DNA from: Spirochaetia bacterium
GTDB lineage: Bacteria; Spirochaetota; Spirochaetia; UBA9216
NCBI GenBank assembly: GCA_963675665.1
Contig: OY776510.1
Location: 427,815 to 491,814, forward strand
DNA: 64,000 nucleotides
Direction of reading: 5' to 3'
Within the stretch, counting starts at the first letter, position 1; the number at the start of each line of letters is the position of its first letter. Below the pieces are notes generated by a model, which was not told where the DNA came from, did not search any database, and saw nothing but the letters and a program-made list of their open reading frames with translations. The translations under genes and the position numbers were made by a program. Shown here one piece after another: positions 9,504 through 23,931 of this stretch.

Positions 9504-12500
9504 TTTCAGATCCTAATTTAAGTTCTCTTGCGGCATCGGTAACTGCATTTATTTTTACCGCAATACTGGTTCGTTTTTCAATATCCGAATCTGTAAGATA
9601 ATGAACATCGAGTAATTCTTCAGTTTTATAACCGGTCCGCAGATAATTAATCCTGCCCAAAGCCCGGCTCCAGCCGTCAAGCCACAGGGCAAGCGCTTCC
9701 TTTTTCCCGGCGTCATCACCAATATGAATTATCAAATCAATATCGCTCATCGGTCCGGCGGTTGCATTCTTTGTGCTGCCGAAGAGATAAAAGGCCTTCA
9801 CCCCGAAGAACCCGGCATCCAGCGATTCCGCAATAGTTTCCGCCATTGAATAGCGCCAGCTCCAGTAATCTTCATGTGTTTCGTTGTTATGGGAATATAT
9901 ATCAATTTGTTTACCGGAAGAAGAGGGATCGGAAAAAATGGCGATCGCCTCATTAATCTCCTCGTTCATAAGAACCTTCAAGACCTTTCCTTCTGTTTCT
10001 TTTCTGATATCGGTTACGAAAATAACACGGGAGAGCTCCGAAAAGTCCGGAAGTATCTCAGTAAGTATATTCTTTGAACGCGTTAAAAATGCATCTTTCA
10101 TCAATATTCCGGGATCGTCGGGATACAAAGGAAGATATTTTATTTCGGCCTCAACAAGATCCTGAAAAAAATGAGTTCCGAAAGAGACTTCGGGAAGATA
10201 ATCCCCTTTTTTCCTGGCAATCTCAATCAGCATGGCGGTATTATTAATATCCGAGTAATTAACCCTTACTCCCAGTTTAATATCTCCGCGGCTTCCCCAA
10301 CGCCCCGGCCCCATAAGAATAAAACGGCGTTTCGGAAGAATTGAATTCAGCCTGCCGACAGCGGCCCCCACGCGTTCCAGCTGTTCAAACGACGGTAAAT
10401 CATTGTAGGCCTCAGGATCTATATAAACAATATAGTCGATATTATCAACAAGCCCGTTTGCAATATGCTTCTTCGCTGTAAAAAGAACCTGGTTCTCGTT
10501 TATATCCTTGGGAATGGGCTGAGGAAGGCTTTCCCGAACCCCGGCCTGGGGCCTGCACTGGAGAAGAAAAAGCCGGCCGCCGCTGAAAGCGAATTCTATA
10601 TCAACAATTGTATTTAAACGTTCTTTCAGTTCATCTATTATGGATTTTATTTTTTCAATAAGACCTGTATTTCGAATCAGCGGATCAAGAGTAAACACAA
10701 GATCATCATTCGCCGTATCAAGCTGAAATTTATTCCTGTTCTTGAAAATATCATCTTCAAATACAGAAAACAGAAGATCCATATCGGGATATGTAACCGG
10801 GTTGTTTCTCAGAAAATCTCTGACATTAACGGTTTCGAATATATTCGTACGCAGATTTATCACATCCATCATTCTGGGTGAATACCTTACAGCTTCGGAC
10901 GGCAAAGGATTTACCTTCATCCCCGGATTTCCCGGGCAGATTAATACGGGATAATCATCGCTTAACCTGTCGACAGCCCGGGTTCCGAGACCGGGAACTA
11001 TCCTGAGCAGACCGTCTTCCTTTGAAATCCTCGGGGACCAGCGATATTCATTACGGCCGAATCCTACGCCTGCAAAAGAAGGGAAAAAAAAGTCTCCCGC
11101 CTGTTCTCCGACAACCTCCTGAATAATAACAGCCATCTCCTCATGAAATTCAAGAAGACCATGCGCTTTTCGGTATTCAAGCGGATCCGGGCCGAAAGTT
11201 GAAGCATATATTTCTGCTATAGCATCCAGTACAGCCGTAAGACGCTCCTCTCTGGATCCCTGATTGGCAAGAAAAAGACTTTTATATTTACCCGAAAAAG
11301 CAGTTCCGTAACGGTCTTCCAGCAGGCTGGAACTTCTTACAATAACGGGTTTGTTTCCGAAGTCTTCCATAGCCATTGACAGTCCGTTGACAAAATCGAT
11401 TGGAAAATTCGAGTTCTTGAAAACCTGTATCAGATTCGGATAATCCGCCCTGATTTCTTCTATATCCTTGTATTTCTGTTCAAGAGATTCTTCAAGGTTA
11501 TTATAATAAATAAATTTATGCATATAATCCGAAGATATATACCAGGTTTTCGGAATACTTACATCTATGCCCGCCTTTTTCAGAAACTGCCCGGCAATAA
11601 ACAGACCGGCGCTTTTGCCTCCAAGTTTTCCATGACTGTTATTAGGGTATATTGCGTGCTGCAGTACTGAATAAAAATCATTTACATCAAGGTAATCTTT
11701 TGCTGATCTTATAAATTCCATCTGTTCAGTAAATACACGCTGTATAAAGAGCGCATTAATATTTGTTCTCGAATAACTGGAAATCTCAAAATGAGACTGG
11801 TTCAAATGATGAAATCTTGAAATGGCCGCGGCAATTCCCGATAACGGAGTATTGAAATTCTCCAGCGCACTGACAAGAAAGCCTGTTTTATCTTCTTTGA
11901 TCCATTTATTCAGATATATTTTTATTTCGTCCTCAGACAAATTCTGGGATGCAATCTTGAAAATATGCTGATTAAATTTATCGTACAGTTCAAAGTTAAT
12001 TTTTAGAGACGGGATATTCACATCCTGAAGAACAGTAATATTTTCGCATTGTTTCTGAAGGCCCATACATCCGAGAACGCTCTGAGCTTCCCGGACGCCC
12101 AGCAGACACAGCCGGTTCAGCATACGTCTGGATATTTTCCTGAAAAGAATACTGTCCATTTTTTCCACCAGTTCAAGAATAACCATCCAGTCCGGCTTTT
12201 TGTTGGCATCGATATCCTGCCTGGCTTTCTCCCACTGTTCAAGCGAAAACTGAAGATCCTGCTGAAAGAGAAAATTTTCAATTCTTTCGGCTATGGTATT
12301 AAGCAATTGCTGTTCTTCAGGAAGAAACGGACTTGACAACCGTGTTGAACCGTCGCTGAAGTGAACTTCTATGATACCGACCGGCTCGCCGCGAAGTATT
12401 AATTCCGCACTTTGGAACCATTTTGATGTCGAGAACCCGTCCGTCGTATAACTTTTATTTCTATAAACGATCCTTACTGAGCAGAACGCCGGAAACTGCC

Positions 12501-12660
12501 ACCCGGAAGGAATAATATCTATAAGCCTGGGGAACACATCCTCTATACTGAGCTGTTCCTTGTTGACAACTTCCTTGACTCTGTAAAGACATTGGAGCTC
12601 TTTTGCTCTTTCATTTAGATTCTGAATCAACGTATTCTCATCGAATGAATTACCGTTCAT
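9496..12660 (-). CDS. Multidomain protein: N-terminal sensor-like domain + PEP-synthase/PPDK-type ATP-grasp (PPDK_N) + conserved GRWGS domain + C-terminal Pol-beta-type nucleotidyltransferase
   Basis: PPDK_N motifs: GGKSAGL, VIVRSSSLLEDRYGTAFSGKYKS, VIIQEVV, IEFAFSGGRLFLLQCRP. GPGRWGSRGD...GTHFF is shared with the downstream paralog. NTase motif GS...DIDLIIH. No phosphohistidine swivel motif seen. Confidence 0.6.
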   Translation of the reverse strand: MNGNSFDENTLIQNLNERAKELQCLYRVKEVVNKEQLSIEDVFPRLIDIIPSGWQFPAFCSVRIVYRNKSYTTDGFSTSKWFQSAELILRGEPVGIIEVHFSDGSTRLSSPFLPEEQQLLNTIAERIENFLFQQDLQFSLEQWEKARQDIDANKKPDWMVILELVEKMDSILFRKISRRMLNRLCLLGVREAQSVLGCMGLQKQCENITVLQDVNIPSLKINFELYDKFNQHIFKIASQNLSEDEIKIYLNKWIKEDKTGFLVSALENFNTPLSGIAAAISRFHHLNQSHFEISSYSRTNINALFIQRVFTEQMEFIRSAKDYLDVNDFYSVLQHAIYPNNSHGKLGGKSAGLFIAGQFLKKAGIDVSIPKTWYISSDYMHKFIYYNNLEESLEQKYKDIEEIRADYPNLIQVFKNSNFPIDFVNGLSMAMEDFGNKPVIVRSSSLLEDRYGTAFSGKYKSLFLANQGSREERLTAVLDAIAEIYASTFGPDPLEYRKAHGLLEFHEEMAVIIQEVVGEQAGDFFFPSFAGVGFGRNEYRWSPRISKEDGLLRIVPGLGTRAVDRLSDDYPVLICPGNPGMKVNPLPSEAVRYSPRMMDVINLRTNIFETVNVRDFLRNNPVTYPDMDLLFSVFEDDIFKNRNKFQLDTANDDLVFTLDPLIRNTGLIEKIKSIIDELKERLNTIVDIEFAFSGGRLFLLQCRPQAGVRESLPQPIPKDINENQVLFTAKKHIANGLVDNIDYIVYIDPEAYNDLPSFEQLERVGAAVGRLNSILPKRRFILMGPGRWGSRGDIKLGVRVNYSDINNTAMLIEIARKKGDYLPEVSFGTHFFQDLVEAEIKYLPLYPDDPGILMKDAFLTRSKNILTEILPDFSELSRVIFVTDIRKETEGKVLKVLMNEEINEAIAIFSDPSSSGKQIDIYSHNNETHEDYWSWRYSMAETIAESLDAGFFGVKAFYLFGSTKNATAGPMSDIDLIIHIGDDAGKKEALALWLDGWSRALGRINYLRTGYKTEELLDVHYLTDSDIEKRTSIAVKINAVTDAARELKLGSENA

Positions 12661-14390
12661 AGTATAATAATTCCTTTCCGGGTATTTCCGTCTGCTATTA
12701 TTTTAATACTTTTTTCAAATTTTATGTGCTTAAAAAACTTGCCTTCAAAAACAGTCTGTTGAGACTCCAGATAATTATAGTCTATAAAGCTGTCATTGTC
12801 CCGGCTGCAGGAATCTATCGAGAAATACACTGTGTCAGTATTCAGAATATTATGAAAAAAATGCGAACCCTGACTGAGTTCCGGATTCATCTCCGGCAGC
12901 GTGGATTCGATGATTACGGAAGCCCCGGAAATCTGGGACCAGCTGACCGGAATTCCTAATGCCGGGTCCGAAGATCCCCAGCGGCCGAACCCGGACAAAA
13001 TATATCTCTTGCCCTCAACAACCAGTTTCCGGTTGATTCTCTCAATTTCCAGCGGCATCTCGGCTGTTTTCAATGCGGAAAATCTTTGCGGATTTATATA
13101 GACAAAATCTTCAACATTTTCAATATATACGTTCCCCAGGGCATTATCGGTATAGGCAACCAGTTTACTCCTGTCGAAAGAAGATATATCAGGGACAATA
13201 CAGGTATTAAGTCTTTTCATGGGCCTTATTTGAAGAAAGGCGAAATCAGCCGTAGGTTTTTGAGGAAAATCAATATTGACGGCAAATTCGATTTCTATTT
13301 CGGAACCTGTTTTTTCCCTGCATTTATCAAGAATATCCGTAACAAGTCTGTTTAAATTTATTATTTCGCCTTTAAGAATAGGTGAAAAATCAATTAGCTT
13401 GAAACCGGAGTCAAGAAAACCCATTTCCAGCCTGTCGGAGGACCTTGAATATGTCGAGCAGAGGCTGCTAATAATTTTACTTTCTTCAAGGCTTTTTACA
13501 GGCTGCAGCGACAAAAACTCTTTTTCATCAAGAGGCGACTCCTTATCCGGCGGTTTTAAATCAATTGCCCAGAAATCAGTCTGCCCGGCATCAAGAAGGT
13601 TTTTCAACGATGCGGGAGGCGGTGAAGCAGGTTTTTCAGGACTGTATATCCATTTTCGTCCGCCGTCAACAATTGTCTTTCCAAGTCCGGCCGCAAGTTC
13701 CACAATACCGCTTTCCGGCTTGCATCCGCTGAAAGGATAATAATTATATGAACGGCCGACGCCTGAAAATGCCGGATAAAAATATCTTCCGTATGATTTA
13801 CCGTGAACCCTCTGGATAATGACCGCCATCCTTTCCATATCAATATCAATACCGGCTGATTTAAAACTGTCCCGGGAGGCTTCGAACCAGACTGATGAAT
13901 ACACAAACTTTACAGCATTAATAAGCTGCAGAAACCTGACATCAGGGTCAGGATGATTATTGGGAATCATTTTTGTTGCAAACAATCCGGCAAAAGGCCT
14001 GTTTAAAGAATCTTCGGTCAGACTGGAGGAACGTATTGCAAGAGGGCCTTTCCTGCCGTTTGAAATCTTTCTTACCTCTCCGATCAAAAACGGCGGAAAA
14101 GAAGCTTTGTTAAATAAAAGTGAAATCTGTTCATCTGTCTTGTTGTTTATGAGTTCAGATCTTAATTTATTTTCATTAATAAAAAGAGTAAATACATCAG
14201 AAAGAATGACTGTCATTTCGGGAACCCCGACAGAGATTCCGTGCCTGCCAACATCAGAAAAATATTCGTCTATCAGCGATTGTATCCTGATAAGGCCGGA
14301 ACCTTTTCCTCCCGGAGCTCCGCTTCCAATAAATGATATTTTATTGTTCATAAAGATAAAAACGCCGGATACCGGCACGGTATCCGGCAA
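12657..14390 (-). CDS. PEP-synthase/PPDK-type ATP-grasp (PPDK_N) domain protein, paralog of 9496..12660
   Basis: PPDK_N motifs: GGKGSGL, LAIRSSSLTEDSLNRPFAGLF, VIIQRV, IEFAVN...FAFLQIRP. Followed by GFGRWGS...GSHFF. 4-nt ATGA overlap with the downstream gene. Confidence 0.6.
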   Translation of the reverse strand: MPDTVPVSGVFIFMNNKISFIGSGAPGGKGSGLIRIQSLIDEYFSDVGRHGISVGVPEMTVILSDVFTLFINENKLRSELINNKTDEQISLLFNKASFPPFLIGEVRKISNGRKGPLAIRSSSLTEDSLNRPFAGLFATKMIPNNHPDPDVRFLQLINAVKFVYSSVWFEASRDSFKSAGIDIDMERMAVIIQRVHGKSYGRYFYPAFSGVGRSYNYYPFSGCKPESGIVELAAGLGKTIVDGGRKWIYSPEKPASPPPASLKNLLDAGQTDFWAIDLKPPDKESPLDEKEFLSLQPVKSLEESKIISSLCSTYSRSSDRLEMGFLDSGFKLIDFSPILKGEIINLNRLVTDILDKCREKTGSEIEIEFAVNIDFPQKPTADFAFLQIRPMKRLNTCIVPDISSFDRSKLVAYTDNALGNVYIENVEDFVYINPQRFSALKTAEMPLEIERINRKLVVEGKRYILSGFGRWGSSDPALGIPVSWSQISGASVIIESTLPEMNPELSQGSHFFHNILNTDTVYFSIDSCSRDNDSFIDYNYLESQQTVFEGKFFKHIKFEKSIKIIADGNTRKGIIIL

Positions 14391-14395
14391 TATTA

Positions 14396-15691
14396 TTAAG
14401 TCCAGCCACGCTGTTTACAGGCGTCGGCCACACGATTAACAGAAATTATGTATGCAGCATCTCTCATGTAAAGATTATTCTTTCCGGCAAGTTCCGAAAC
14501 AGACATAAACGCTGAAGTCATCTTTAGATCAAGTTTACTTATCACCTCATCTTTTTCCCAGTAATAATTCATATTATTCTGTACCTGCTCAAAATAGCTG
14601 CATGTTACTCCCCCGGCATTTGCGAGAAAATCCGGAATTATAAATATTCCGCGCTCTTTTAAAATTTCATCTGCTTCAGGGGTCGTCGGACCGTTGGCCG
14701 CTTCGGCAATTATCTTTACACCTTTGCCTATTTTTCCAACAGTCTCTTTGGTTATCTGATTTTCAAGTGCCGCAGGAATAATAATATCAACATCCTGCTC
14801 AATCCAGACATCCCCCGGAAGCACCTCATATCCCAGTGAAATTGCCTTTTCACGGTCTATACCTCCGAACCGGTCGGCTATTCCCCGAAGCTCTTCAAGG
14901 TTTATCCCGTCTTTCTTCCTGAATGAAAATGATTTCGACTCCTTTTGATCCCAGCAGGATACGCAAACAACAGTTCCGCCAAGCTGTTCATACAACTGTA
15001 TTGCATACTGGGCAACATTGCCAAACCCCTGAATACTGGCGATTGTTTTTTCAGGCGACATATTAAGTTCCTTCAAGGCCTCTCGCAGGGTAAATATCAC
15101 CCCGAAACCGGTTGCTTCAGTTCTTCCAAGGGACCCGCCGAGACCGACCGGTTTACCGGTAATTACACCGGGATATTTTGCTCCGGTTATGGCTTCGTAC
15201 TCATCCAGCATCCAGATCATATGTTGGCCGTTAGTCATTACATCCGGCGCCGGAACATCGCGAACCGGCCCAAGCGCACCCGCAAGCTGTCTAATCCAGC
15301 CCCTGCAGATTCTTTCCTGTTCTCCTGCGCTAAGATGATGCGGATCACATATTACTCCGCCTTTGCTTCCGCCCAAAGGAATATCCACTACGCTGCATTT
15401 CCAGGTCATCCACATGGATAAAGCTCTGACGGTGTCAATTGTTTCAAGCGGATGAAATCTGATTCCGCCTTTCCCCGGACCAAGCGCATCATTATGCTGA
15501 CACCTGAATCCGTTGAAAACCTTAACACTCCCGTCATCCATTCTCACGGGGATATTTACATGATATTCCCGCATGGGAACCCTTAAAAGATCTCTTGTGC
15601 CCTGATCAAGCATAAGATATTCGGCAATATTGTCGAACTGCTGTTGTGCCATTTTAAACGCATTATAAGACTGGTCTTTCATTCTCTGCAC
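14396..15691 (-). CDS. gdhA: NAD(P)-specific glutamate dehydrogenase
   Basis: Glu/Leu/Phe/Val dehydrogenase signature (GGSKGG, catalytic-Lys region). Rossmann GFGNVAQ. Confidence 0.9.
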   Translation of the reverse strand: MQRMKDQSYNAFKMAQQQFDNIAEYLMLDQGTRDLLRVPMREYHVNIPVRMDDGSVKVFNGFRCQHNDALGPGKGGIRFHPLETIDTVRALSMWMTWKCSVVDIPLGGSKGGVICDPHHLSAGEQERICRGWIRQLAGALGPVRDVPAPDVMTNGQHMIWMLDEYEAITGAKYPGVITGKPVGLGGSLGRTEATGFGVIFTLREALKELNMSPEKTIASIQGFGNVAQYAIQLYEQLGGTVVCVSCWDQKESKSFSFRKKDGINLEELRGIADRFGGIDREKAISLGYEVLPGDVWIEQDVDIIIPAALENQITKETVGKIGKGVKIIAEAANGPTTPEADEILKERGIFIIPDFLANAGGVTCSYFEQVQNNMNYYWEKDEVISKLDLKMTSAFMSVSELAGKNNLYMRDAAYIISVNRVADACKQRGWT

Positions 15692-15892
15692 CTCTGTATC
15701 AATGAAAATATAAATAGAGTTTGCGCCAACATTACACAGCTGTCAATACGATTTCGGCTTTACCAGAGCCTTAACAGAACGCTATCATCATTAAATTTAG
15801 AGCAAAACACGATATCCGTACGCAGAGAATATATAGATTATTAAATTTATTTGATAATGATTCAGAAGAAAGGTATTATATACTATTTTCTA

Positions 15893-16606
15893 TTAATCTG
15901 CCGAACCGCAGATATACTCCGCATACTTATTTGGAACAAGAAGTGCTTTGCCGCCGTCAATTGTAACCCTGATCCCCTCGGTTTCAACTGCGTCAACCAT
16001 CATTCTGCGCCCCGGTCTGAGTTCATTTTCATAACAGAACTGGAGCAGACCTTCCTCGGCTTCCCCTTCTTCAGTTATCCTGACAAGCCGGACATTGCTG
16101 CTTTCAACTGCCTGACTGAGACGTGGCGCCGCAAGGATTTCATTTTCCAGGGGTGAACCGGGAAAAGGATTGCCGTGAGGACAGGTTTCCGGTCTGCCCA
16201 GTTTATCATGGAGAAAATATGCGAAATCATCAGATATTGCAGCCTGCAGCCTGGAAGCTTCCTCATCCGATTTAACCCAGTGATAATCAAGCATTTTTAT
16301 AAGAAGATGTTCAATCAGATAGTGTCTTTTCAGAAGCCTTGAGGCTGTTATTCTGCCTGAAGCCGTCAGATTTATCGAGCCGTATAGATCCTGCTCAATA
16401 AGGCTGTATCTTTTCAAACGATTCATGGCCTGTGTTACGGCGGGTTTCGATACTCCCAGACGAGCCGCTATTACCGAGTTTTTTACAATACCGTAATCCC
16501 GGTTTGTGATAAATATTTCAATCAAGTACTCCGCCGCCGCCGGGAATTTCTTTGTTAATTCTTCCAAATCATAAACCTGATCTTTTCCCATAAGCTCAGA
16601 ATACAC
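15893..16606 (-). CDS. DtxR/MntR-family metal-dependent transcriptional regulator with C-terminal FeoA-like domain
   Basis: wHTH (SVIAARLGVSKPAVTQAMNRL). Dimerisation/metal-site region with HGNPFPG. C-terminal SH3-like FeoA domain. Track ORF runs to 16639 using an ATG that lies inside the IS inverted repeat. A GTG at about 16606 with an AAGGGG RBS, or an ATG near 16591, is a more likely native start. Confidence 0.7.
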   Translation of the reverse strand: MYSELMGKDQVYDLEELTKKFPAAAEYLIEIFITNRDYGIVKNSVIAARLGVSKPAVTQAMNRLKRYSLIEQDLYGSINLTASGRITASRLLKRHYLIEHLLIKMLDYHWVKSDEEASRLQAAISDDFAYFLHDKLGRPETCPHGNPFPGSPLENEILAAPRLSQAVESSNVRLVRITEEGEAEEGLLQFCYENELRPGRRMMVDAVETEGIRVTIDGGKALLVPNKYAEYICGSAD

Positions 16607-16636
16607 TATTTTGCCCCTTATAAAAAGAAATTCTAA

Positions 16637-17911
16637 CATAGCTGTCCAAAATAAGGACTATTAATAGCCTGAATCCCTGGTTATAATGAATTGAGCGGGC
16701 AAGCTTAAATCATTACAACGGAAGGAAAACAGGCAATGAGTTATAAGAATAGCATTTTAAATCAGATACTTCAAATCATTCCGAGACATGAATTTGAAAG
16801 ATCTGTCAGAAAGTATAAAGGAGATTTTGCTTCAAAAGGATTCTCCTGTTGGGAACAATTTGTTTCAATGCTGTTTGCCCAATTTACAGGACAGACCGGA
16901 CTTAGAGGCATAGAAACAGCATTGGATTCGATTAAAAACATGCTTTATCATTTGGGGGTAAAAAAGCTTAAACGCTCAACACTTTCCTATGCAAATAACA
17001 ACAGACCCTCAGAAATTTATGAAAATGTATTCAATAACCTGCTGACAAAGATCCTTAAAATGAAAAGGTCTCATAAGCATAGATTTAAAAATCCGCTGTA
17101 CAGTGTTGATGCGACAACCATCGATTTATGCCTGTCAGTATTTCCATGGGCGAAGTTTAGAAAGAATAAAGGCGGAATCAAACTTAATGTAAAACTTGAT
17201 CACAGCGGATATATTCCGGACTTTGTATCTGTTACAACAGCTCAAACCCATGAGCTTAATTCACTCAAGAAAATGAAATTCAATAAAGGTGATGTAGTTG
17301 CATTCGATCGGGCCTATACAGATTTCAAATTATTTGCAAGTTATTGTATTGCAGGCATTTATTTTATTACTCGTATGAAAAAGAATGCAGATTATAAAGT
17401 TGTTCAAAGAAATAATGTTTCAAAATATGAAAATATTTCATCAGATCAAATAATTGAAATGCGAGGATACTACACCAGCAAGAAGTGACCACTCCAATTA
17501 CGGCGAATTAGAATAAAAGATCCGGAAACAGGAAAATATATTGTAATTCTTACAAATCAGCTTGATTGGGCACCTACAACAGTTGCTGCTGTCTATAAGG
17601 ACAGATGGCAGATAGAAATATTCTTCAAAACAATCAAACAGAACCTGAAAATAAAGAAGTTTTTTGGAACGACGAAAAATGCAGTAATGACTCAGATCTG
17701 GATAGCATTGATAACTCATCTGATGCTGCAATATCTGAAGATGTTATCTTCCGGTGGATGGACTCATTATTCGCTTATGAAATTGCTTCCATCAATCCTG
17801 ACGACCAGAAAAGATCTCTGGAATATTCTGAATAAACTACCGCCGCCCGGCAGAAATGAGCCAGGCTTAAAACTTCAAATGGAGCTGTTATGATTGTTTT
17901 GGACAGCTATG
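16637..17911 (+). mobile_element. IS4-family insertion sequence (1275 bp) with perfect 15-bp terminal inverted repeats and 9-bp target site duplication
   Basis: Left end CATAGCTGTCCAAAA (16637-16651) is the exact reverse complement of the right end TTTTGGACAGCTATG (17897-17911). Flanking direct repeat AAATTCTAA at 16628-16636 and 17912-17920. Encodes a DDE transposase. Confidence 0.85.
16736..17893 (+). pseudogene. IS4-family DDE transposase (DUF4372-like N-terminus + DDE_Tnp_1), interrupted by one in-frame TGA at 17486-17488
   Basis: The 250-aa ORF 16736..17488 continues in the same frame after a single TGA (…TSKK*PLQLRRIRIKDPETGKY…WQIEIFFKTIKQ…) to a stop at 17891-17893. The uninterrupted frame would give about 385 aa. 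Confidence 0.6.
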
Positions 17912-17918
17912 AAATTCT

Positions 17919-17956
17919 AAAAAAAAAGTCCTGCACCGTTAATACCTGTGCAGGAC
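17919..17956 (-). terminator. Rho-independent terminator of feoB
   Basis: On the minus strand: 9-bp perfect stem GTCCTGCAC(17928-17936)/GTGCAGGAC(17948-17956), 11-nt loop, followed by a 9-nt U tract, beginning 18 nt after the feoB stop. The IS target duplication overlaps the U tract. Confidence 0.75.
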
Positions 17957-17973
17957 TTTATTATGTAAAATCC

Positions 17974-20283
17974 TTATTGAAGGGAAAGACTTTTTGATTT
18001 TCTGCCCATTGCCCTGAAACTAAAATATATGGCAAGTGCAAGGATTACGGGAACTACTATCCAGACTACCTGACCTCCCTGAAAAATCTGATAGAACAGG
18101 GTAGCAACAATCCAGGCGAGAAGGGTCAGGTAAGTAACGAGAAGTGTTCCGTAGGCCCTGCCTGTTTCCTGAACGGCTACACCCAGGGCGGCAACGCATG
18201 GAAAGTAGATCAGAATAAAGAGAAGATAAGCATAGGCGCTTACGGGCGTAAAGTTGTTCCTCAGCCCGGTAAAGACGCTGTCTCCGGTTTCAAGCTCTTC
18301 GCCTGTCACCTCTTCATCTCCGTTAATAATTCCGGCGCCGAAGGGATCGGACAGACCGCCGAAGATGCCGGCAAGGTTTTCTCCGAGGGTTATAAAAGCT
18401 TCGCCGAGAACCGGGCCGAGCCCCCATCCGGAATCATCATCGCTTTCGGCAGCATCTTCCGTAACAGCTTCCTGCGCATACAGAGAATTCAACGTTCCGA
18501 CCACAGCTTCTTTGGCAAAAAGGCCGGTAAACAGACTTACGGTGGCAGGCCAATTCTCCTTTTCAATTCCCATGGGGGTAAAAATCGGAGTAATAGCTTT
18601 TCCTACAACAGATAAAACCGATTCTTCCGAATCTTCATTTCCGAAGGAACCGTCCGTTCCAAGCGAGTTGAAAAACGCCAGAACCAGCACGACAAGAATG
18701 ATCACCTTTCCCGCCCTGAAAAGGTAAACTTTAAGTCTCCGCCAGGCGCTTTTTGTTATCTGCCCCAAACGCGGTCGGTGATATTCGGGCAACTCCATGA
18801 CAAAAGGAGAGTATTCACCCTTCAGGATACTGCTTTTAAGTAATAGTCCCGTAAGAATTGCCAGCACAATCCCCGCTGCGTAAATCGAGAATACAACGGC
18901 TCCGGAACGTGTTCCAAAAAAAGCGGCTGTGAACAGCGCATAAACAGGCAGACGGGCACCGCAGGACATAAACGGGGACATAAAGATGGTCATGAATCTG
19001 TCCCGCCTCGATTCCAGAGTCCTGGTCGCCATAATAGCCGGAACAGTACAGCCGAAACCGACAAGCATGGGAACAAACGCCTTGCCCGGTAGACCGATTG
19101 CCCTCATTGCACGGTCCATAACAAAAGCAGCTCTGGACATGTACCCGGAATCTTCAAGAATAGCCAGCATAAAAAACATTACAAAAATAATGGGAACAAA
19201 AGTCGAAACGGTCTGAATACCTCCGCCAATACCGCCTGCGATTATCGAAGTAAGCCATTCCGGACTTCCGATATTCGACAGCAGAGTTCCGAGACCGTCG
19301 ACAAAGATTCCGCCGAAAACAATATCAAACCAGTCTATAAATGCGCCGCCGATGCTCATTGTTACCCAGAAAACAAGGTACATAACACCTATAAAAATTG
19401 GAATGCCCCAGATCCTGTGCATAAGAAGTTTATCCGCTCCGCTGGAAGTTTCCGCTTTTTCTTCAGGATGCTTAACACAAGAATCACAAACCCCGGTAAT
19501 CCATGAATAACGATCTTCGGCAACACTCATATCAACGCTTGTTTTCATTGAGGCTTCCAGCTTTTCAATTTGGGCATCTACTTCAATACGTTTGATACTC
19601 CCCTCTGCAAGCGAAGTTATATATTCATCTTCCTCGAGAAGGTTAACAGCAAGAAATTTTGAATTGATTTTTAATTCTTTGGCAAGCGCCCCCAGCCTTA
19701 AGGCAAGAGTCCCTACCGCCGCTTCGATTTCCGGAGAGTATTCAACTGGATAAACCGAAACCGACGGCAATTTTTCAAGCACACTGATTAATTCATTCCT
19801 GAAATTATCCAGGCTATCCTTTCTTACTGCAGAAAGCGGAATTACCGGGCAGCCGAGCTTCAGGGAAAGTTTTTCAACATCTATGCCGAGGCCTTCCTTT
19901 TCTGCCGCATCCATCATATTAAGTGCTATAACAACCGGAAGTCCGGCTTCCAGAATCGTTCCGGTCAGATAAAGATTACGTTCAAGATTTGCCGCATCAA
20001 TAATACTGACAACACAATCAACATTACCGCTGATGAGAAAATCACGTGCGACGCGCTCATCTTCAGACTCTGCAGAAAGACTGTATATACCGGGAAGATC
20101 AACTACTCTGTAATCCGACTTTTTCGTTTTTAACAGGCCCTGTTTGCGCTCAACAGTTACGCCGGGCCAGTTGCCGACTTTTGCGGTGGAACCGGTAAGT
20201 CCGTTAAAAATTGTAGTCTTTCCGCAATTCGGATTACCCGCGAGCGCTACCGTTATTGTTTTTGTTTCTGTTGCAGTATTCAT
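17974..20283 (-). CDS. feoB: Ferrous iron transporter FeoB
   Basis: N-terminal G-domain (GNPNCGKTTIFNGLTG, DLPG). Gate motifs and large polytopic membrane domain. 769 aa. Confidence 0.9.
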   Translation of the reverse strand: MNTATETKTITVALAGNPNCGKTTIFNGLTGSTAKVGNWPGVTVERKQGLLKTKKSDYRVVDLPGIYSLSAESEDERVARDFLISGNVDCVVSIIDAANLERNLYLTGTILEAGLPVVIALNMMDAAEKEGLGIDVEKLSLKLGCPVIPLSAVRKDSLDNFRNELISVLEKLPSVSVYPVEYSPEIEAAVGTLALRLGALAKELKINSKFLAVNLLEEDEYITSLAEGSIKRIEVDAQIEKLEASMKTSVDMSVAEDRYSWITGVCDSCVKHPEEKAETSSGADKLLMHRIWGIPIFIGVMYLVFWVTMSIGGAFIDWFDIVFGGIFVDGLGTLLSNIGSPEWLTSIIAGGIGGGIQTVSTFVPIIFVMFFMLAILEDSGYMSRAAFVMDRAMRAIGLPGKAFVPMLVGFGCTVPAIMATRTLESRRDRFMTIFMSPFMSCGARLPVYALFTAAFFGTRSGAVVFSIYAAGIVLAILTGLLLKSSILKGEYSPFVMELPEYHRPRLGQITKSAWRRLKVYLFRAGKVIILVVLVLAFFNSLGTDGSFGNEDSEESVLSVVGKAITPIFTPMGIEKENWPATVSLFTGLFAKEAVVGTLNSLYAQEAVTEDAAESDDDSGWGLGPVLGEAFITLGENLAGIFGGLSDPFGAGIINGDEEVTGEELETGDSVFTGLRNNFTPVSAYAYLLFILIYFPCVAALGVAVQETGRAYGTLLVTYLTLLAWIVATLFYQIFQGGQVVWIVVPVILALAIYFSFRAMGRKSKSLSLQ

Positions 20284-20522
20284 TTGCAGGCCTCCAGCTC
20301 AAGAACCTCGGCTTCAGCCTTGCGGAGGCTGAGGTTATAGCCCCTGACCGATATTTCAACCGGATCGCCCAGCGGCGCTGTTTTCTTCATTACTATTTCA
20401 GTGCCCTGAGTAAGGCCGAAAGACAAAAGTTTTCTGCGGTAGTCTTTCCTGCCTTCCCGGTAGCCCGTTATGACCGCCTTTTCTTCAGGTTTCATAGCCG
20501 ACAATTTAAGCAGCTCTTTCAT
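20280..20522 (-). CDS. feoA: FeoA family protein
   Basis: 80 aa SH3-like FeoA. Overlaps feoB start by 4 nt and the upstream feoA by 1 nt. Confidence 0.8.
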   Translation of the reverse strand: MKELLKLSAMKPEEKAVITGYREGRKDYRRKLLSFGLTQGTEIVMKKTAPLGDPVEISVRGYNLSLRKAEAEVLELEACK

Positions 20523-20779
20523 TATTTCTCTCCCTCTAATATTATTCCGGTCAGCATTTCACGGCCCAGCATTACCTTTCTGCGGTTTATTTCGATAACG
20601 CACGGACCATGTTTGTATCCGTTTATCAATCTCATCTCTGCACCGGGCCTTAACCCAAGACCAAGCATCTTTGCCCTGAACCCTCGTCCCGGCCCGAGTT
20701 CCGCGATACAGGCTTTCTGTCCTTCTTTCAAATCTGCTGCAGTTGAAAAATGGTACCCGCGACATCTTTTTTGTCTCAT
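20522..20779 (-). CDS. feoA: FeoA family protein (second copy)
   Basis: FeoA-like sequence (ADLKEGQKACIAEL…GAEMRLI). Start moved to an internal ATG (MRQKR) with an AAGGGGA RBS. Track ORF begins with GTG at 20824. Confidence 0.7.
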   Translation of the reverse strand: MRQKRCRGYHFSTAADLKEGQKACIAELGPGRGFRAKMLGLGLRPGAEMRLINGYKHGPCVIEINRRKVMLGREMLTGIILEGEK

Positions 20780-20827
20780 AAGGATCCCCTTGCAAACTTT
20801 ATTAGTCTTAGCTAATGCTATCACAAA

Positions 20828-20853
20828 CCATAGTTAATGTCAATTAACCATGG
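20828..20853. promoter_or_regulatory. 26-bp near-perfect palindrome upstream of feoA: candidate metalloregulator (DtxR/Fur-type) operator
   Basis: CCATAGTTAATGTCAATTAACCATGG is palindromic with one mismatch (inner core GTTAAT-GTCA-ATTAAC). About 50 bp upstream of the feoA start, in the divergent promoter region. Confidence 0.4.
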
Positions 20854-20971
20854 TCGAGTCGGGCAAAATCAGAAAGAAATATCGCTTTTGCGCCGTAATC
20901 ATAAGAAAAAACCTTGATCTATAACATAACACACGTTATATTATAGGTGTTATAAAACGGTTGTAATATAT

Positions 20972-21418
20972 TTGGAGTTGGCAATGCTTTCAAAAAAAAC
21001 GGGACTTATCCTGGTTTTTATTCTTCTTGTTTCATCAGGATACAGACTCAACGCCCAGCTGAACGCCGGCGGAACAGTTTACTGTAAAAGCGGCAGGGAC
21101 GGAACCCTTCTGATAATGCTTGTAGACGAGGAAACATTCAGCAGGCCCATGACGGGCCTGGCCGTAAAAGAGATCAGGGTTTCTTCGGGCGCCGCATTGA
21201 TAGATTTTGAATTCGATAATGTCCCGCCGGGCATCTACGGTATAAGATGCTTTGTAGACACCGACGGCAATGAAAAACTCAACAGGGGGCTGTTTGGGCC
21301 CTCCGAACCCTGGGGGATGAGCTGGAATGAAACCGCCCATCCCGGATGGCCCGAATTCAGCATGATTTCATTCAAACTCGAAAAGAATCTGTCGGGCCTG
21401 AAGATAACCGTTGAATGA
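20972..21418 (+). CDS. Secreted DUF2141-like protein
   Basis: Signal peptide and size/composition similar to the DUF2141 family. Function unknown. Confidence 0.4.
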   Translation: MELAMLSKKTGLILVFILLVSSGYRLNAQLNAGGTVYCKSGRDGTLLIMLVDEETFSRPMTGLAVKEIRVSSGAALIDFEFDNVPPGIYGIRCFVDTDGNEKLNRGLFGPSEPWGMSWNETAHPGWPEFSMISFKLEKNLSGLKITVE

Positions 21419-21440
21419 TATAAATAAAAATGGAGGGAAT

Positions 21441-22055
21441 ATGCCGCCGAAAGGTAAATACAATTCGGAAATAATTATTGAAGCAGCATTTGAACTTGTG
21501 AGGGAAGAGGGCTTTGAACAGCTGTCCGCAAGAAATATTGCAAAGAGGCTCGGATGCTCAACCCAGCCAATATACAGTTTTTTTAATTCGATTGAAGAAC
21601 TGGAAGAAGTCCTGATGAAACGGGTAAAGCGCTACTCACAGGATCTTATCCTGGAATATGAAGACAGCGAGAGCAACTTTCTCGCTACCGGCCTGGGTTA
21701 TTTCCTGTTCGCCCGAAACGAACCGGAACTTTTCAAGGGACTTTTTGTAAAGGGCGGGTGGAGATGGAATTTCACCGCAGATGATCCTTTTTCGGCTCCT
21801 ATTCTAATAAAAATGAAGAAGGATAAGTTTTTGGAAAAACTCAAGGAGGAAAAGCTTCTTGATCTTTTCAGGGATATGTTCATATACACTCACGGACTGG
21901 CTACCCAGGATTACCTGAGCGACACTCCCGTGAGTCTCGAAGAGGCCAGGGAACTTCTTCAAAGGTTGGGGGGAGTGCTAATCGTCAGCGCCACGATCTC
22001 CGGAAAATTTGAAATAGAGAAACTCATGAGGAGGTTTCACGGATGGAACGATTAA
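21441..22055 (+). CDS. TetR/AcrR family transcriptional regulator
   Basis: N-terminal HTH (LSARNIAKRLGCSTQPIYSFFNS). Start at MPPKG with a GGAGGG RBS. Confidence 0.75.
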   Translation: MPPKGKYNSEIIIEAAFELVREEGFEQLSARNIAKRLGCSTQPIYSFFNSIEELEEVLMKRVKRYSQDLILEYEDSESNFLATGLGYFLFARNEPELFKGLFVKGGWRWNFTADDPFSAPILIKMKKDKFLEKLKEEKLLDLFRDMFIYTHGLATQDYLSDTPVSLEEARELLQRLGGVLIVSATISGKFEIEKLMRRFHGWND

Positions 22056-23446
22056 AAATAATCATATTAAACGGTTCTCCCAAGGGAGAAACAAGCGTCT
22101 CGGTTCAGTATATGCGTTACCTTGAGTTACGCTTCCCTCAACATAATTATGAATTTATTAACGCGGCACAGAACTGCACAAAATACGAAAAGAACCGGGC
22201 AGCTTTTGAAACTGTTATGGATAAAATCGATAATTCCGACCTGGTCCTTTGGGCTTTTCCGCTGTATTACATGCTTGTCTGCTCACAGTACAAACGCTTT
22301 ATCGAACTTGTTTTCGAACGGGAAAAAACCGGCACATTCAAAGGCAAATATACTGCCGCATTAAGCACCTCGATACATTTTTTCGATCATACGGCAATAA
22401 ACTACATTCAGGCTGTCTGCGATGACCTCGGAATGAACTTCCTTGAAGGAATTACTGCAAAAATGGACGACCTCCGTAATGAAGATTTTCGAACAGGTTT
22501 CGACAAACTATTTTCCGGTTGGGCGCAATCGGTAAGAACCGGACGACCGGTATCCAGGGGTTTTGCCCCGGTTACAAATGAAACATTCAGCTTCGTCCCG
22601 GAAAACACAAACTCAATTGTTCAGCAACCCGGCCCGCAGAAGGTTTGCATAGTAGGAGATCTTGAACACAAAGACAGCAACGTCCGGAAAATGGCTGCCC
22701 TGGCTGCCGGCATTAAACCCGGAGCGGAAACAATAGATCTCGGCAGTCTGAAATTCGGGCCCTGCGCCGGGTGCCTTAAGTGCGGATTCGACAACATCTG
22801 CGCCTATGAAGGCAAAGATAATCTAATCAACCTTCACCGAAATACGATTCTTAAGGCTGATATAATCATTTTTACCGGGGCTATACACGACCGTTACCTT
22901 TCATCTGTATGGCAGCGATATCTTGAAAGAACATTTAACTACACTCATCAGCCGAGACTTGTCGGAAAACAGATAGGGTTTATTATAAGCGGCCCGCTTG
23001 CACAGAACCACAATATCAGGGAAATCCTGCAGGGATATGCCGAAACCATGGGCGGAAACCTGCTTGGGTTTGTAACAGATGAGCCTGCCGACAACAGCCT
23101 TGTATCCCGAAGTATTGAACATCTTATGCATCAGGCTCACGATTGGAATAAAGCAGGCGTCAGAAAACCAAAAAGCTTTTTGGGCATCGGCGGCATGAAG
23201 ATTTTCCGTGATGACATATACAGTCACCTGCGGTTCGTTTTTCAGGCCGACCATGAATTTTACAAACAGCAAGGACTTTATGATTTTCCGCAAAAAAGGT
23301 TTATAATGGCAATGGCAATATCAGCCGGCATGTTGCTTACAAAAATACCGCCGTTGAGGAAAAAGATCAGGCAGCAACTGAGGCAGGGGATGATAAATCC
23401 CTATAAAAAGCTGTTCAGCAAAATATTACCGGCAGGAGTGAAATGA
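22043..23446 (+). CDS. Flavodoxin-like fold NAD(P)H-dependent FMN reductase family protein (tandem/extended, with Cys cluster)
   Basis: N-terminus IIILNGSPKGETS is typical of NADPH-dependent FMN reductase/flavodoxin_2. A second flavodoxin-like half carries CAGCLKCGFDNIC. Confidence 0.5.
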   Translation: MERLKIIILNGSPKGETSVSVQYMRYLELRFPQHNYEFINAAQNCTKYEKNRAAFETVMDKIDNSDLVLWAFPLYYMLVCSQYKRFIELVFEREKTGTFKGKYTAALSTSIHFFDHTAINYIQAVCDDLGMNFLEGITAKMDDLRNEDFRTGFDKLFSGWAQSVRTGRPVSRGFAPVTNETFSFVPENTNSIVQQPGPQKVCIVGDLEHKDSNVRKMAALAAGIKPGAETIDLGSLKFGPCAGCLKCGFDNICAYEGKDNLINLHRNTILKADIIIFTGAIHDRYLSSVWQRYLERTFNYTHQPRLVGKQIGFIISGPLAQNHNIREILQGYAETMGGNLLGFVTDEPADNSLVSRSIEHLMHQAHDWNKAGVRKPKSFLGIGGMKIFRDDIYSHLRFVFQADHEFYKQQGLYDFPQKRFIMAMAISAGMLLTKIPPLRKKIRQQLRQGMINPYKKLFSKILPAGVK

Positions 23447-23931
23447 TGTATTATACACAATTCAAAACTCAATTCTGCGAAATAATTCTTGCAGGAAATG
23501 ATGAAGGTCTGAAGTTTCTGCAAATGAATACAAACGACGGAAAAGGCCTTTTCAGGGTTTCGCCGGACTGGGTGCGAAAAGATGCCTTTTTCTCCGGCAT
23601 TGTTACACAGATTAATGAATATTTTACCGGCTCCAGACAGACTTTTGACGTGCGGCTTGCACCAGACGGCACAGATTTTCAGAAAAGCGTGTGGAAGCAA
23701 TTGCAGGGAATTCCCTACGGTGAAACCCGAACCTACGGCGAGATTGCCGCTGCAGCAGGAAACCCGTCCGCCGTGCGCGCAGTAGGCGGTGCAAGCAGCC
23801 GCAACCCGGTACCGCTGATAATACCCTGCCACCGGGTAATTGGTGCGGGGGGAAAACTTACGGGATTCGTGTACGGCCTCAAGCTAAAAAAACAGCTCCT
23901 GGAGTTTGAAAAAGCAAATCTGTCAAAATAA
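23443..23931 (+). CDS. ogt: Methylated-DNA--protein-cysteine methyltransferase
   Basis: Active-site motif IPCHRVIGAGGKLTGF. Confidence 0.85.
   Translation: MMYYTQFKTQFCEIILAGNDEGLKFLQMNTNDGKGLFRVSPDWVRKDAFFSGIVTQINEYFTGSRQTFDVRLAPDGTDFQKSVWKQLQGIPYGETRTYGEIAAAAGNPSAVRAVGGASSRNPVPLIIPCHRVIGAGGKLTGFVYGLKLKKQLLEFEKANLSK

Follow-up and report, generated by a model that had tools for sequence, protein, structure and literature searches.

The DNA analysed here, referred to as the window, is a stretch of 64,000 nucleotides from the genome of a Spirochaetia bacterium (contig OY776510.1). Among its features are a feoA-feoA-feoB operon (17974–20824, minus strand), the predicted intrinsic terminator downstream of feoB (17919–17959, minus strand), a complete IS4-family insertion sequence (IS) of 1,275 bp (16637–17911, plus strand) and a gene for a DtxR-family metal-dependent regulator of 232 amino acids (15893–16591, minus strand). 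The element was inserted into the 98 bp that separate the feoB stop codon from the regulator ATG, 16 nt beyond the GC pairs of the terminator stem and 46 nt before that ATG. The feoA-feoA-feoB order is the same in the homologous loci L001, L085 and L086. The first feoA ORF (20522–20824, minus strand) is 100 amino acids long from a GTG in the window, as against 85 in L001, and its true start is probably further downstream.

The predicted feoB terminator consists of a 12-bp stem (17948–17959 paired with 17925–17936), an 11-nt loop and a run of nine T's (17919–17927), three of which are paired. The fold has a free energy of -23.3 kcal/mol (z = -4.3), and the structure is the GC-rich hairpin followed by a U-run that is expected of an intrinsic terminator, its function being predicted. 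Its sequence is identical in L001 and was left unaltered by the insertion. The more distant L086, in which feoB also lies upstream of the regulator gene, possesses a comparable clean terminator, and L085 is without one. Judged from these sequences, read-through from feoAAB into the regulator gene was probably limited by the terminator before the element arrived. An Rfam scan of 15600–21100 gave no credible RNA family. On the plus strand, 17925–17967 presents the same hairpin followed by TTTATTAT, and transcripts that emerge from the right IS end may therefore be terminated here as well. Just inside that end, on the minus strand that any feoB read-through would enter, a short GC-rich hairpin (17837–17853) is followed by TTTATT; the scan gave no other terminator-like hit, and one is no more than is expected by chance.

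The element is bounded by inverted ends and a target-site duplication. The left end, CATAGCTGTCCAAAA(TAA), lies at 16637–16654 (plus strand) and its terminal CAT reads as an ATG on the minus strand; the right end, (TTG)TTTTGGACAGCTATG, lies at 17894–17911 (minus strand) and repeats the left end in inverted orientation. Over 16637–16651 and 17897–17911 the two match at 15/15 bp (17/18 if extended), and a search of the 64-kb window found exact copies of the 15-mer at these two ends only. The 9-bp duplication AAATTCTAA is present at 16628–16636 and, adjoining the right IS end, at 17912–17920. A tenth base also matches beside it (G at 16627 and 17911), 17911 being the final base of the right end. 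The perfect 15-bp repeats and the 9-bp duplication had been proposed in a preliminary description of this DNA, and both were confirmed. The same description called the element intact-ended, which holds for its ends; it made no mention of the transposase gene being a nonsense pseudogene.

The closest homolog of the regulator (P0121, 97% identity) is specified by L001, on a 5.38-Mb contig where the genes follow one another as in the window, namely DUF2141, TetR, feoA, feoA, feoB, regulator and glutamate dehydrogenase. Its feoB-regulator spacer reads GGTGCAGGACTTTTTTTTTAGAATTTCTTTTTATAAGGGGCAAAATAGTG... and lacks the element, the duplicated 9-mer being present there as a single copy. This empty site, GGTGCAGGACTTTTTTTTTAGAATTTCTTTTTATAAGGGGC, is identical to the window minus the element and one copy of the duplication, and its reverse complement is the string that had been predicted for a relative without the IS. 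When the window is aligned with L001 by BLAST, the alignment is interrupted precisely at the duplication; identity is 96.5% towards feo and 94.6% towards the regulator. Without the element and one 9-mer the feoB terminator reads as it stands in L001, as had been claimed, and since the duplication reproduces the native bases, the 16 nt that follow the GC stem do not differ from those of the empty site. The suggestion that the event was recent stands insofar as the insertion took place after the L001 lineage had split off; it is recent only in this relative sense, two codons having already changed in comparison with intact copies in the same genome.

Nucleotide identity between the window and L001 falls abruptly from 94.6–96.5% (15901–23899; L001 1–6706) to 75% (9817–15900; L001 6794–12723). 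The drop is located at the 3' end of the regulator gene, the last residues of its product being YICGSAD* in the window and YICCSELEII* in L001. The gene order is kept across it; recombination may have left a boundary here, or the region may be mosaic.

Related elements were sought in a set of genomes from which the source genome was absent, and the closest were 76–85% identical. The Spirochaetia genome OY759746.1 carries at least 14 copies (76% amino-acid identity), and one further copy is present in Spirochaeta sp. UBA9216 (85% amino-acid and 84% nucleotide identity). Full copies are exactly 1,275 bp long with ends CATAG[C/G]TGTCCAAAA (L002–L022), and perfect AT-rich 9-bp duplications flank eight of the 12 clean ones. 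Since the related copies share length, ends and 9-bp duplications, the original assignment of ends and duplication is right. Their targets are assorted AT-rich 9-mers, five of eight being in long open stretches and probably inside genes. Targeting of terminators by the IS was considered and set aside as unlikely on these grounds. The insertion had been placed "precisely at the U-tract" of feoB; it does lie just past the terminator, and the sense of targeting has to be given up, the nine-T run being kept whole on the feoB side. A cut-and-paste DDE element of the IS4 family (IS4Sa-like) transposed into the AT-rich 9-mer AAATTCTAA, and the result is a cleanly delimited insertion of an unnamed family member at a tolerated intergenic site. 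The type is widespread in Spirochaetia with a common length of 1,275 bp, common ends and a 9-bp duplication.

Nine of the related copies in OY759746.1 (L002–L013, L016, L018) are clustered at 2.05–2.19 Mb. The expected left end is missing from L006 and L010, and the right end is degenerate in L009 and L010 (TTTTAGTCACCTATG). Several copies in this genome are without matching duplications, a sign that copies may have recombined with one another.

The transposase gene is a single frame of 385 codons (16736–17893, plus strand) interrupted by a nonsense codon, with no frameshift. Its 5' part of 250 codons plus a premature TGA (16736–17488) specifies the DUF4372 domain and the catalytic residues D125 and D191. 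The 3' part (17489–17893) continues in the same frame beyond the stop and specifies E294 and the signature Y287-x2-R290-x3-E294-x6-K301 (YKDRWQIEIFFKTIK, residues 287–301; 17594–17638). The full frame matches NCBIfam model NF033592 (IS4 family) with 273 bits against a cut-off of 115, and its Pfam domains are DUF4372 and DDE_Tnp_1 (PF01609, 81 bits), bearing out the earlier placement in the IS4 family. D125, D191 and E294 are invariant across 115 transposase homologs. A sequence search against solved structures revealed no relative.

Codon 251 of the window copy is TGA (17486–17488). Cysteine is found at this position in 113 of the 115 homologs, the related elements have TGC or TGT as their codon 251, and Cys251 is likewise present in P0001 and P0002, two intact transposases (385 amino acids, 99% identical to that of the window) from a 5,150,563-bp contig that also specifies the 250-residue product and is evidently the source genome. 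As the sequence reads, the window copy is shown to carry a TGY-to-TGA nonsense change and is a pseudogene-bearing IS. Its 250-residue product retains D125 and D191 and has lost the catalytic Glu294 together with the YREK signature; on account of this truncation the copy would be unable to transpose on its own. Given its perfect ends, it could still be mobilised in trans by P0001 and P0002.

The regulator possesses Fe_dep_repress (PF01325, 28.9 bits) and Fe_dep_repr_C (PF02742, 65.9 bits) domains, both above their Pfam cut-offs, and scores below the cut-offs of the NCBIfam MntR and DtxR equivalog models. The N-termini of 29 homologs align with the ATG at 16591–16589 (MGKDQ...), and this supports the start near 16591 that had been assumed. 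Immediately upstream lies a conserved block, ATAGTGTATTCT (16598–16609, minus strand), in which the proposed -10 box, TATTCT, spans -12 to -7 when counted from the A of the ATG. The arrangement AAATAGTGTATTCT-N6-ATG is identical in L001, L082, L083 and L086 and is one or two bases off in L085 and L087; outside it the upstream DNA has diverged. In L082 and L083 genes other than feoB lie upstream of the regulator, yet the block is kept. The regulators that carry it in L082, L083 and L085–L087 show 71–77% protein identity to that of the window. Over a wider sample of 34 homologous loci a TANNNT motif ends six bases before the ATG in 14, as against about one at most other offsets. A Shine-Dalgarno-like sequence precedes the regulator gene in 3 of the 34, and the ATAGTGTATTCT-N6-ATG block contains none.

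The block looks like the -10 box of a leaderless regulator mRNA made from the gene's own promoter, a reading that would rest on its position, its conservation and the absent ribosome-binding site. Since the 12 nt are more conserved than a -10 box requires, they may also, or instead, be a site to which a regulator binds. The corresponding -35 region, TTTTTA, is weak (3/6 matches). The insertion may therefore have displaced upstream AT-rich sequence or a factor site that the promoter needs. In the window AAGGGG occurs seven bases before an in-frame GTG (16606–16604), the codon that the gene caller took as the start in L001, so that a leadered regulator mRNA is possible in this lineage. As the start of the regulator itself this GTG was rejected, being inside the DNA block that is conserved in orthologs starting at the ATG. 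The idea of the block as an operator shared with feo was likewise discarded, ATAGTGTATTCT occurring only once in the window. In this clade of DtxR-like regulators the genes seem to lack leaders and to share a strongly conserved 12-nt block ahead of the ATG, which offers a small lead on their expression.

The terminal CAT of the element supplies a further ATG (16639–16637) in frame with the regulator gene. It opens an ORF of 248 codons, 16 more than from 16591–16589, as the preliminary description had noticed and the ORF list confirmed; the added segment (16592–16639, minus strand) is a spurious N-terminal extension. The public gene call P0241 of the same genome (248 amino acids; 15893–16639, minus strand) is exactly this IS-extended ORF, and for L001 the gene caller took the GTG within the conserved block and arrived at 240 amino acids. 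Each of the two is probably too long. The homologs and the conserved DNA argue for 232 amino acids as the best-supported length, and the ATG supplied by the IS would be an annotation artefact with no role as a real start. For annotation, the copy should be marked as a pseudogene-bearing IS and the regulator call shortened from 248 to 232 amino acids. The significance of the locus lies mainly in this correction; the insertion as such points to no new biology.

Relative to the regulator start, the IS ends at -46 and the duplication spans -45 to -37. As this 9-mer matches the native bases, the DNA from -45 to +1 is as it was before the insertion, and the conserved block lies wholly downstream of the IS end. 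A promoter of its own would serve the regulator gene, with TATTCT as a -10 box that ends six bases ahead of the ATG and a leaderless mRNA as the product. On the other side the feoB terminator keeps its stem and all nine T's, and the insertion would be near-neutral for both neighbors, the losses being the T-rich DNA upstream of -45 and any feoAAB read-through. The control signals of both neighbors were probably left intact. We regard it as very probable that this is an ordinary defective IS4-family insertion, non-autonomous and near-neutral, next to a regulator gene with a leaderless promoter of its own.

The preliminary description placed the element in the promoter region of the regulator gene and proposed that it possibly rewires expression. 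This is doubtful, the block being present with and without feoB upstream and lying downstream of the IS end. An unaffected promoter in that position had been named there as the observation that would speak against the proposal, and the conserved block suggests exactly such a promoter. The separation of the regulator from feoAAB read-through, also noted there, would be a loss of transcription that the terminator had probably limited already.

An effect on regulator expression, through interrupted read-through, removal of upstream promoter DNA or an outward or hybrid promoter at the IS end, is unlikely but is the strongest of the alternatives. Only 46 nt separate the IS end from the ATG, and the expected -35 position directly adjoins that end. 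The native -35 is weak, the T-run that was replaced could have been an upstream A/T-rich element, and the inverted end holds an outward-facing TGGACA that matches TTGACA at 5/6 positions. Against this, the native -45 to +1 DNA and the regulator ORF are intact, the promoter-like block is conserved independently of linkage to feoB, and a strong predicted terminator already separated feoB from the regulator gene, as it does in L086. The nearest good -10-like hexamer (TATAAG) is 20 nt from TGGACA, and the promoter scan indicated no outward promoter at this IS end. A hybrid promoter using TGGACA was rejected on the grounds that this spacing is too long and that the scan did not report it.

The more specific proposition that the insertion measurably alters the regulator level or metal response, by way of the lost T-rich DNA, the lost read-through or transcription from the IS, or that IS transcripts yield a regulator longer by 16 residues, appears improbable. 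Were it true, the change in the regulator would lead to altered iron or manganese homeostasis.

We consider it very improbable that the TGA at codon 251 arose by error in sequencing or assembly, or is decoded by read-through, leaving the window copy active and autonomous. In favor of this, it is a one-base change within an otherwise open frame of 385 codons that is 99% identical to the intact copies. However, the public gene call P0041 of the same genome (250 amino acids) ends at the same TGA, and a second private change (I78L), bringing the total to two codons that differ from the intact same-genome copies, indicates that the window copy has diverged. In addition, the long ORFs nearby read correctly with TGA as a stop, and no recoding signal is expected.

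It is barely credible that the true regulator promoter is TTAACG (17942–17937) with TAGAAT (17919–17914), a pair listed by the scan (9/12 matches, 17-nt spacer) that overlaps the terminator and has its -10 in the duplicated 9-mer, and as hard to credit that the insertion split this -35 from the regulator-side -10 and created an extended -10 (TGnTAGAAT) at the junction CTATG+TTAGAAT, the TG-T-TAGAAT of which is indeed seen in the window; the scan listed 12 sigma-70-like sites against 6.6 in shuffled sequences, so that a single site carries little weight, and the pair was dropped because it is not conserved in L085, L086, L082 and L083, unlike the ATG-proximal block.

Within the IS4 family, subgroup IS4Sa is characterized by a size of 1,150–1,750 bp, ends of the form CA------T and a duplication of 8–10 bp (De Palmenaer et al. 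2008, PMC2266710, Table 1). With 1,275 bp, ends CATAGCTGT (CA------T) and 9 bp, the element falls within all three ranges and by these features fits an IS4Sa-like assignment. It also shares with the subgroup a DDE transposase specified by one frame, as seen in the 385-residue P0001 and P0002, with the complete Y-(2)-R-(3)-E-(6)-K signature of the family (PMC2266710). The window copy differs in carrying a premature stop. The duplication of 9 bp, found in the window copy and in eight related copies, agrees with the roughly 8–13 bp of the IS4 family as against 4–6 bp in IS701, ISH3 and IS1634. Other subgroups have a T at position 15 (ISH8) or AA at positions 11–12 (IS231) of their ends (PMC2266710), neither of which is seen in CATAGCTGT.

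Among annotated plasmids the nearest named relative is the ISAbe18 type of Acinetobacter plasmids ("IS4-like element ISAbe18 family transposase"). It aligns over residues 1–385 and has the same length and architecture, but its amino-acid identity to the window transposase is only 36%. Closer relatives, with 76–86% identity, are unnamed transposases in Spirochaetia metagenome-assembled genomes.

The creation of hybrid or outward promoters for neighboring genes is classical for insertions of IS1, IS2, IS5 and IS10. The present insertion resembles these in that its end is less than 50 bp from a gene start and in that the inverted end holds an outward -35-like hexamer. It differs in the spacing of that hexamer from the -10-like sequence, which at 20 nt is wrong for a promoter, and in that the neighboring gene appears to keep a complete core promoter.
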